Part shown: in pieces, positions 12,852 to 15,306 of the stretch | How positions within the stretch are numbered: the first letter of the stretch is position 1 | Layout of the letters: every line of letters starts with the position of its first letter | Sequence record: PZ452606.1 | DNA length: 64,000 nucleotides | DNA from: a phage | Reading direction: 5' to 3' (one strand) | Position numbers and translations under genes: made by a program | Notes under the pieces: generated by a model | The model's input: only the letters and a program-made list of their open reading frames with translations | What the model was told of the DNA's origin: nothing | Database searches by the model: none

Positions 12852-13712
12852 TTACACCGCCATTTTTCCTTTAATTGGCAGATGAGATACATAGTTGTTA
12901 AGAACAAAATTATGAGGCTTTGCAAATTGACTCAACCAAAATACCTGCGATTCTGTGTCCCATTCATCAAATTCATCTGGAAATTTTAATTGTAATTCGC
13001 ATAAATCCATAGGTTCACGACGTAAAATTTCTTTACATTGTTCTACGTGATTCATATAGATATGAGTATTACCACCAGAAAATATCAAATCTCCAGGAAT
13101 AAGATTACACATTTTAGCTACAATATGAACTAACGTAGCATATGATGCAATATTAAATGGAAGACCGAGGAAAACATCTACCGAACGTTGATACCACTGC
13201 AAATCTAAATAGCCATTACGCACATTAAACTGATAGAACATATGACAAGGCGGTAATGCCATATATTTAAGTTCAGCTGGATTCCACGCAGAAACAATTT
13301 GACGCCTATCATTTGGCAGTTTTTTAATACGATCAACAACTTCTATAATTTGGTCTACACCGCCAAAATCACGCCACTGTTTTCCATAAATTGGACCAAG
13401 TTCACCGCTATGATATCCTAAATCTTTTGCCTGATTTTCGTAATTTTCATCCCAGACTGTTTTGCCTTGGATTAACGAATCGTGTTGAATTAATCGTAAA
13501 TCATTGACATTTGTGCTTCCTGATAAAAACCATATTAGCTCAGCAATGCATGCATTCCAGGCGAGCTTTTTAGTTGTTACTGCAGGAAAGCCTTTAGTTA
13601 AATCCCAACGCAATTTAGTACCGAACAGAGCAATTGTTCCTGTGCCTGTGCGATCATCGGTTTCATAGCCATTTTCAAAAATGTCTTTAATTAAATCTTG
13701 GTATTGTTTCAT
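12852..13712 (-). CDS. td: thymidylate synthase
   Basis: 286 aa continuous ORF with TS active-site region PPCH; no intron. Confidence 0.95.
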
Positions 13713-13757
13713 TTAGTACCTTATATAAATTATAATACATTTTATGAAGCTAAATAA

Positions 13758-14105
13758 TCAATACGGTTTAGCATCAAATTTTCTCTCAATTTCAGGTGTG
13801 AAATATAATTCTTTACCGCGTTTGGAAAAGCGACCAATAATATGATAATTATTCTCATCAAACGTAATATTACCAATATCCATAGCTTTCAACCAAATAT
13901 CGATATTTCTATCCAGCTTTATGTCAAAATTCCAATACGGAGAACTATTACCAAAAATACTACAAGCGGATTCAGTGAAACAGCTACTATAAATCTTGTC
14001 TTTAGGAACTACTAATTGATAGACACCTTTAATAAACTGAGGACCTTGCCATTTTGGCTGTTTCGCGTCTTTTTCTAATAGAATAGGATAATAATTAAAA
14101 TTCAT
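13758..14105 (-). CDS. hypothetical protein inserted between frd and td
   Basis: 115 aa from ATG at 14105 (track ORF starts at GTG 14117); no recognised domain. Confidence 0.5.
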   Translation of the reverse strand: MNFNYYPILLEKDAKQPKWQGPQFIKGVYQLVVPKDKIYSSCFTESACSIFGNSSPYWNFDIKLDRNIDIWLKAMDIGNITFDENNYHIIGRFSKRGKELYFTPEIERKFDAKPY

Positions 14106-14125
14106 ATTTTCCGCCACGCGTTATT

Positions 14126-14952
<827 letters not shown>

Positions 14953-14963
14953 ATTATCTCCTA

Positions 14964-15296
14964 TTAAAAAGGATCAGGAACATATCCGCTAGCTTTAATC
15001 ATTTTAATTAACGTTAACATTCCTTTGTTAACTGCTCGTGAGATTTCATCAAAAACTTCATCACTAAAAAGTTCTAACACGCCCTTCTGAACTTTTAATT
15101 TACAGCCAACAATTTCTTCATCGCCTATAGTAAATTCATTACCACCAATTCCACCGAAAAACTTAATTACACCAGTTAACTGTCTTCCACGAGAATATGG
15201 GTCGTGTGATAAAGTAATATGAGTCACCCCGGGTACAGTTTTAAATTGGCAGCGAATATTTACTTGTGAAATTCCAGTTACATGAATGTCAGACAT
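14964..15296 (-). CDS. hypothetical protein
   Basis: six-frame ORF in frd-32 interval. Confidence 0.5.
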   Translation of the reverse strand: MSDIHVTGISQVNIRCQFKTVPGVTHITLSHDPYSRGRQLTGVIKFFGGIGGNEFTIGDEEIVGCKLKVQKGVLELFSDEVFDEISRAVNKGMLTLIKMIKASGYVPDPF

Positions 15297-15306
15297 AATA
15301 TTTTCC

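Follow-up and report, generated by a model that had tools for sequence, protein, structure and literature searches.

The window analysed here, a stretch of 64,000 nucleotides of phage DNA (sequence record PZ452606.1), carries between the genes for dihydrofolate reductase (frd) and thymidylate synthase (td) a real gene encoding a 115-aa soluble protein, and this gene is the common state of the frd-td junction in T-even phages, with T4 as the outlier. The gene, called slot gene A in the following, is already known: its annotation in T-even phages goes back to the sequencing of the RB-phage genomes, and T4 is simply exceptional. The overall reading to which slightly more than even weight is given is that of a T2-type slot allele with a history as a cassette, which would encode a dispensable, early, non-catalytic binding protein with a host factor as its preferred target.

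Slot gene A in the window and among T-even phages

Slot gene A, a member of the RB32ORF229c family (PHROG 1928), was located from the ORF listing and the sequence at positions 13758..14105 on the minus strand, with its ATG at 14105 and its stop codon at 13758-13760. A GTG lying four codons upstream of this ATG (14117) offers an alternative start that would give 119 aa, and the homolog P0002 uses it. The upstream neighbour is frd (14126..14707, minus strand; Pfam DHFR_1, 3.4e-19) and the downstream neighbour is td (12852..13712, minus strand; Pfam Thymidylat_synt, 1.2e-92, full length), which in the window encodes 286 aa uninterrupted by a group I intron. From the frd stop to the td ATG the interval measures 413 bp, leaving gaps of 20 nt between slot gene A and frd and of 45 nt between slot gene A and td, so that the initial annotation, which had described from the sequence a 115-aa ORF in an interval of about 400 bp, was accurate in this respect. 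No second copy or paralog of the gene was found in the 64-kb window.

That frd and td are adjacent or overlapping in T4, as the same annotation had stated, is confirmed by the T4 genome (NC_000866), where frd occupies 145109-145690 and td starts at 145112, giving a 4-base ATGA overlap with no ORF between the two genes. The T4 sequence published by Purohit and Mathews in 1984 reportedly agrees with this overlap. A search of the T4 genome for the slot gene A family found no member anywhere (best E 0.26 over 2,414 six-frame segments).

Among other T-even phages the gene is abundant. The slot gene A protein is 100% identical to copies in T2 (AY310907, PV648363), T6, RB14, AR1, PP01 and RB3, and its relatives were found in 581 phage records, 363 of them at 90% identity or more and 266 at 99% or more; the entire frd-ORF-td stretch is present in 353 records at a coverage of at least 80%. 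In the RB51 record the protein is named RB32ORF229c, and the PHROG profile phrog_1928 matches it with E=8.4e-36, aligning its residues 4-111 with positions 2-125 of the 126 in the profile, so that RB32ORF229c/PHROG 1928 and the slot gene A product are the same protein at the same frd-td position, with no difference between them. Placement between frd and td on the same strand of a T4-like genome was found in the window, T6, RB51, the BASEL phage TadeuszReichstein and at least six further lineages.

The frequency of the gene was estimated with a 200-bp probe over the T4 frd/td junction, which matched 515 records; an evenly spaced sample of 60 of these was taken, and 58 were scored after two uninformative fragments had been excluded. 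The T2-type junction, split by about 417 bp, was seen in 40 of the 58 sampled records, the direct T4-type junction in five (~9%; T4 itself, vB_EcoM_112, G28 and FN), and in the other 13 (~22%) only the frd half of the probe was matched. Roughly 70% of Tequatrovirus records thus carry slot gene A, as judged both from this sample and from the 363 records at 90% identity or more set against the 515 flank matches, and the carriers include T2, T6, RB14, RB51 and RB3. The expectation that the ORF would be unusual relative to related phages does not hold, since the same ORF is found at the same position in most of them (T2, T6, RB phages), with T4 excepted. The proposal of inserted accessory cargo survives in part: the gene is extra relative to T4, sits at the exact frd/td overlap and is bordered by what resembles an insertion scar, but it is not unusual, since about 70% of Tequatrovirus carry it. 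Over the frd-td region the closest record to the window is vB_EcoM-BECP11 (98.2%), and identity to the T2 reference fragment is about 95.5%; the window therefore comes from a T2-like phage and not from T2 itself.

Two other features of this region are also variable. The td group I intron with I-TevI is present in T4, T6 and the phages with the 68-aa slot allele described below and absent from the window, and the combinations of slot allele and td intron include ORF without intron (window), ORF with intron (T6) and intron without ORF (T4). Between frd.1 and frd (14707-15296, minus strand), the window carries two small ORFs, of 81 aa (14707-14952) and 110 aa (14964-15296), where the gap in T4 is only 71 bp; the region of the 110-aa ORF (~14963-15303) is also absent from the T2 reference fragment AY310907, and RB51 and T6 have a 119-aa ORF (RB51ncORF237c) at that site. 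The frd.1-frd interval is thus a further polymorphic slot adjoining the frd-td slot.

Junction sequences and the history of the slot

Comparison of the sequence and its repeat positions with T4, T6 and RB51 by alignment shows the slot gene A unit flanked on either side by a 9-bp direct repeat, TAAATGAAA. The left copy (14124..14132, minus strand) contains the frd stop TGA (14126-14128) and begins a vestigial td start in the form of the mini-ORF ATG AAA TAA, and the right copy (13707..13715, minus strand) contains the real td start codon (13710-13712). The two copies lie 417 bp apart and are identical at 11 of 12 positions when extended; the RB51 record carries the remark 'flanked by 9 bp repeat' for RB32ORF229c. 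Across the frd/td junction T4 reads ...TATATAAATGAAACAATACC..., and the window reads ...TATATAAATGAAA up to the first border, then TAACGCGTGGCGGAAAAT leading into the ATG, the ORF, its TGA, the spacer and GGTAC, and after the second border TAAATGAAACAATACC... The repeat and the vestigial ATG AAA TAA together give the junction in the window what looks like the appearance of an insertion scar.

The short leader TAACGCGTGGCGGAAAAT (14106..14123, minus strand), which runs from the repeat to the slot gene A ATG, contains a GG-rich motif like a ribosome-binding site. About 15 bases upstream of the ATG in the window are similar to the 3' end of frd in Edwardsiella phage PEi26 and in the metagenomic contig L013, the similarity being short (~12 of 19 bases), and we infer from it that the leader resembles the frd 3' end of phages in which slot gene A overlaps frd.

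On the other side, the spacer from the ORF stop to the right repeat (13716..13757, minus strand) contains a promoter-like sequence, TTGATT-N18-TATTAT, which matches the consensus at 9 of 12 positions (13761..13732), the count of such matches being not above shuffle expectation. Some 10-12 nt ahead of a TATAAT, the spacer also has a GCTTCA motif that resembles the MotA box of T4 middle promoters. The same spacer is kept in T6 and RB51, with its promoter-like sequence conserved, and that sequence, at most a putative promoter upstream of td, is absent from the T4 junction. The promoter and terminator scan found no stem-loop terminator in the spacer, where counts were again not above shuffle expectation, and the only Rfam match to an RNA element in the region was sub-threshold (E 0.12). 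The suggestion that the spacer, as the 45 nt downstream of the ORF, is a remnant of the 68-aa gene C described below was dropped, as just about 5 nt (ACTAA) are in common.

These borders suggest a cassette history in which a unit consisting of gene A and a sliver of donor flank would have recombined into a T4-like ATGA junction, duplicating 9 bp in the process. The same TAAATGAAA repeat would also allow the 417-bp cassette to be lost precisely, and because of this T4 could represent either the ancestral empty state in the genus or a revertant; the repeat is compatible with both directions, so that it could be either that the T2-type arose by insertion or that the T4-type arose by deletion.

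Cassettes that move small genes between T4-type genomes have been described before. PeSLs are promoter/stem-loop cassettes that shuffle small non-essential genes in these genomes (Arbiol et al. 2010, PMC2839356). As with them, slot gene A is a small gene of the ORFan type that close relatives have acquired or lost as a whole, and a promoter-like sequence lies at one border of the unit. The slot gene A unit differs in that its borders are a 9-bp repeat derived from the frd/td stop/start overlap, as opposed to PeSL motifs (PMC2839356): the strong sigma-70-like promoter and stem-loop terminator that mark a PeSL border were not found there, where the promoter-like match reaches 9 of 12 positions and no terminator-like stem-loop was detected.

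Homologs of slot gene A occupy the same frd-td interval in several other genera, including Klebsiella phage Mineola (Jiaodavirus), Edwardsiella phage PEi26 (Kanagawavirus), Erwinia phage Cronus (Roskildevirus) and Salmonella phage STML-198 (Gelderlandvirus), as well as in Klebsiella phage Biddle_MM4 and in L013, a 32-kb metagenomic T4-like contig whose copy is 63% identical. Outside Tequatrovirus, gene A and frd overlap without an intervening leader. PEi26, STML-198, Cronus, Biddle and L013 have as a second gene in the slot a longer paralog, gene B, with an insertion of about 20 residues straight after the invariant Trp of the family; its membership of the family is indicated by hmmsearch (1e-7 to 2e-15) and by PHROG 1928 matches at 4e-16 to 2.5e-39. 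Gene B also adjoins frd in other Erwinia, Serratia and Kosakonia phages and in EcS1.

A third gene found in the slot, gene C (68 aa, PHROG 9550), is very basic (pI about 10), and its ends overlap frd and td. Two of the 13 records in which only the frd half of the probe matched were inspected, Escherichia phage UTI-E4 (L008:3099-3305) and Yersinia phage PYPS2T (L009:3096-3302), and each carries gene C, which has no counterpart in the window; the 'flagellar biosynthesis protein' label on the PYPS2T gene is unsupported. No relationship between gene C and the slot gene A protein was detected with hhalign (probability 0.3%). Gene C is bordered by AATGA on either side and the adjacent 5' end of td is divergent, which suggests that this allele may have been acquired by recombinational exchange with a more distant phage.

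All three genes occur together in a frd-td array, in the order A (short), B (long) and C (68-69 aa), in L013 (4001-4879; SRR23814683_3322) and in Biddle_MM4 (L012:1501-2354). Every junction of the array in L013 is an overlap, and gene C of L013 is 81% identical to the Tequatrovirus 68-aa allele, the Biddle gene C being closely similar. The arrays suggest that the Tequatrovirus alleles (A only, C only or none) may be reduced versions of one module. As read from these sequences, the frd-td slot is a site for 0 to 3 genes from three families, of which the A/B family is an old resident, and the family of slot gene A is confined to T4-like phages.

Gene boundaries in the slot, as seen in L013, L008, L005 and the window (13707-13715/14124-14132), are all stop/start overlaps of the ATGA or TAATG type, and the borders of the indels between slot alleles coincide exactly with these motifs. 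The ATGA/TAATG overlaps may serve as microhomology for the precise gain or loss of whole small genes.

Conservation and predicted structure

The slot gene A sequences of the window and T6 differ at 10 synonymous and 0 non-synonymous positions, and their translations are identical. With about 82% of sites non-synonymous, the chance of finding 0 of 10 differences non-synonymous is about 4e-8. For the six pairs formed by four close alleles (window, T6, RB51 and BASEL phage TadeuszReichstein), pN/pS is 0.00-0.17, showing that slot gene A is under strong purifying selection. Among 1.84 billion cluster representatives searched exhaustively with HMMER, 16 proved to be true relatives, 99-119 aa long and 26-48% identical. 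Six residues are the same in all of them (Q16, W19, G27, G91, K95 and G97); once the long paralogs are included, five of these (W19, G27, G91, K95 and G97) stay invariant, and Q16 and F93 are near-invariant. An 838-aa HMMER match (P0019) was rejected as a TPR-repeat artefact.

The statement that the protein has no recognisable domain was upheld, as no Pfam or NCBIfam match was found at E<=1, and a PADLOC scan of the protein gave no match. When 19 family members were scanned, scattered matches to single members only were returned (best E 0.048), none of them to homing endonuclease families (GIY-YIG, HNH, LAGLIDADG, PD-(D/E)xK, EDxHD), and a sequence-profile search of the PDB gave noise only (dynein, E 0.01) and no nuclease. 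A well-characterised homolog was also looked for and none was found, PHROG 1928 being a family of unknown function. A profile search of 5.8 billion proteins that included the long paralogs gave 32 relatives of 113-148 aa, all single-domain, unnamed and from T4-like phage contigs; no domain fusions were found among these 32, and all relatives taken together are single-domain proteins of 99-148 aa.

The AlphaFold2 model of the slot gene A protein is confident (pLDDT 90.9, pTM 0.84) and consists mainly of beta strands with one helix at residues 68-76. Comparison of the model with solved structures gave no significant match, and neither a nuclease fold nor a structural match to a nuclease was found; matches in BFVD are to uncharacterised proteins of T4-like phages only. 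No similarity in sequence or structure was found to the characterised anti-defence proteins of solved structure that were compared (Ocr, Arn, Tad1/2, Acb1/2, Gad1, anti-CRISPRs and others).

Candidate functions of the slot gene A protein

The favoured reading begins with slot gene A being co-transcribed with frd and td before replication, which is put forward tentatively, as is the proposal that its product would be a small non-catalytic binding protein. The gene is taken to be dispensable, at least in laboratory hosts, because T4 is entirely without the family. A non-catalytic binder is favoured because the conserved residues look non-catalytic: W, K and three G are invariant and Q and F nearly so, which is not a catalytic set, and no enzyme family was found for the protein in Pfam, NCBIfam or PADLOC. 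The binding face might be formed by the loop that follows strand 1 (Q16-x-K-W19) together with a hairpin (G91-R-F-x-K95-x-G97), a placement held with low confidence.

As to what the protein would bind, a host factor, in the service of host modulation or counter-defence, is the preferred class, with single-stranded nucleic acid as second choice. A host factor, defence included, is a possible target that still falls well short of an even chance; single-stranded nucleic acid is a less probable target, a nucleotide-precursor enzyme complex a less probable one again, and the remaining weight goes to something else. An anti-defence or host-takeover role, as the initial annotation had proposed for a gene in this position, is no more than a reasonable guess. 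An interaction with the host is favoured by the patchy presence of the gene and by its tandem paralogs; three interchangeable alleles in one genus (A, C or nothing) and the diversification of paralogs in tandem have an arms-race flavour. Other features speak against it: counter-defence genes evolve fast and are less typically so highly conserved or so anciently syntenic, and the coupling to frd/td translation seen in other genera could point to a role with those enzymes instead. This host-factor reading has a parallel in gp55.2, a small T4 ORFan host modulator reported to inhibit topoisomerase I (PMC4396842). Modulators of the gp55.2 class are like slot gene A in being encoded by small non-essential early T-even genes with no homologs outside the group, but they show no homology to it, and the likeness is by analogy alone. 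Nothing on slot gene A was found in the literature searched, which included Petrov et al. 2010, Arbiol et al. 2010 and a 2025 accessory-gene screen with its supplements.

The alternative that survives best, although it is on the unlikely side, is that the protein binds single-stranded nucleic acid through a divergent barrel of the OB-like type and serves, for instance, as a regulator of translation or as one associated with replication. The weak structural matches obtained with two methods are mostly to OB and S1 domains (HIN, Teb1, S1, RecO, Cdc13, TPP1, SSB, RPA, RuvA domain I and Stn1-Ten1). In size, in its mostly beta composition and in having one helix, placed after strand 3 and before strand 4, the model is compatible with OB folds such as those of SSB, RPA, S1 and HIN. 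Also compatible are the conserved aromatic and basic residues W19, F93, K95 and R92, placed in two loops that correspond to L12 and L45 of the OB fold, and the mildly basic character of the family, whose pI is mostly 7.7-9.4. However, the model scores equally well against kinase N-lobes and against the ATP-binding domains of histidine kinases, and because of this the OB-fold resemblance is only a lead.

Somewhat less probable still is that the protein acts as an accessory subunit or adaptor of the nucleotide-precursor machinery, which would bind dihydrofolate reductase, thymidylate synthase or the dNTP synthetase complex and tune folate/thymidylate flux. Such a role would suit the frd-td position to which the family strictly keeps in all lineages examined, the position of the long paralog, which is likewise always beside frd, and the start/stop overlaps with neighbouring genes in Mineola, PEi26, Cronus, STML-198 and L013, which imply coupled translation. 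T4, however, operates the same pathway without a family member, and the Tequatrovirus slot holds gene A, an unrelated 68-aa gene or nothing, which is a poor fit to a stoichiometric partner. Synteny is moreover weak evidence where gene order is broadly conserved among T4-like phages, and in the window gene A is uncoupled from its neighbours by the 20-nt and 45-nt gaps.

The same 115-aa protein is labelled in public records as hypothetical protein, putative homing endonuclease, putative dihydrofolate reductase or putative glucose-1-phosphate adenylyltransferase, the records with inconsistent labels including MZ501106, MW749001, OK272476, NC_054937 and OR125554. The labels as dihydrofolate reductase and glucose-1-phosphate adenylyltransferase are supported by no search made here. 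That the gene is a free-standing homing endonuclease or the remnant of one, as labelled in BASEL phage records ('putative homing endonuclease' in MZ501106, MZ501052, MZ501089 and others), is very improbable. Homing endonuclease genes are abundant in T-even genomes, and slot gene A shares with the T-even seg/mob genes its small size, its location between conserved genes, its patchy presence among close relatives and a short flanking direct repeat. It differs from them in having no nuclease domain or fold, in being much smaller and in keeping a fixed position across genera, as opposed to their sporadic occurrence. No GIY-YIG, HNH, LAGLIDADG or other nuclease domain was found at E<=1 with Pfam and NCBIfam in the protein and 18 relatives, nucleases are absent from the structural matches, and at 115 aa the protein is shorter than the intact Seg/Mob enzymes of T4 (genes of 423-795 bp, ~140-264 aa). 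Purifying selection and stable synteny across genera are likewise unlike a decaying mobile endonuclease, and on these grounds (no nuclease domain or fold, a short protein, a stable position under selection) the label was rejected.

The weakest alternative, that slot gene A is non-functional, being either an ORF that arose by chance or the decaying remainder of something in the spacer between two genes, could draw on the absence of a known domain and on T4 managing without the gene, but it is refuted by the substitution pattern (10 synonymous against 0 non-synonymous differences to T6, pN/pS of 0.17 or less for every pair), and invariant residues that persist at 26-48% identity in at least 16 diverged representatives, a confident predicted fold and an existing PHROG family also stand against it.

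A broader and rather speculative possibility is that A, B and C form a three-gene accessory module exclusive to T4-like phages, in which the A/B fold would be without a relative among solved structures. Such a module would act either on the flanking folate/thymidylate enzymes or as a new family of host or defence modulators, and A, C or neither would be kept according to the hosts that a Tequatrovirus phage meets.

The wrong public labels (homing endonuclease, dihydrofolate reductase and glucose-1-phosphate adenylyltransferase) should not be propagated. The frd-td junction is a clean example of stop/start overlaps (ATGA, TAATG) serving, it would appear, as microhomology and leaving the neighbouring genes undisturbed. 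The value of slot gene A lies in its being a very widespread and strongly conserved T-even gene with a confidently predicted fold that has no solved relative, and T4 without slot gene A as against T2 or T6 with it provides a natural contrast for genetics.
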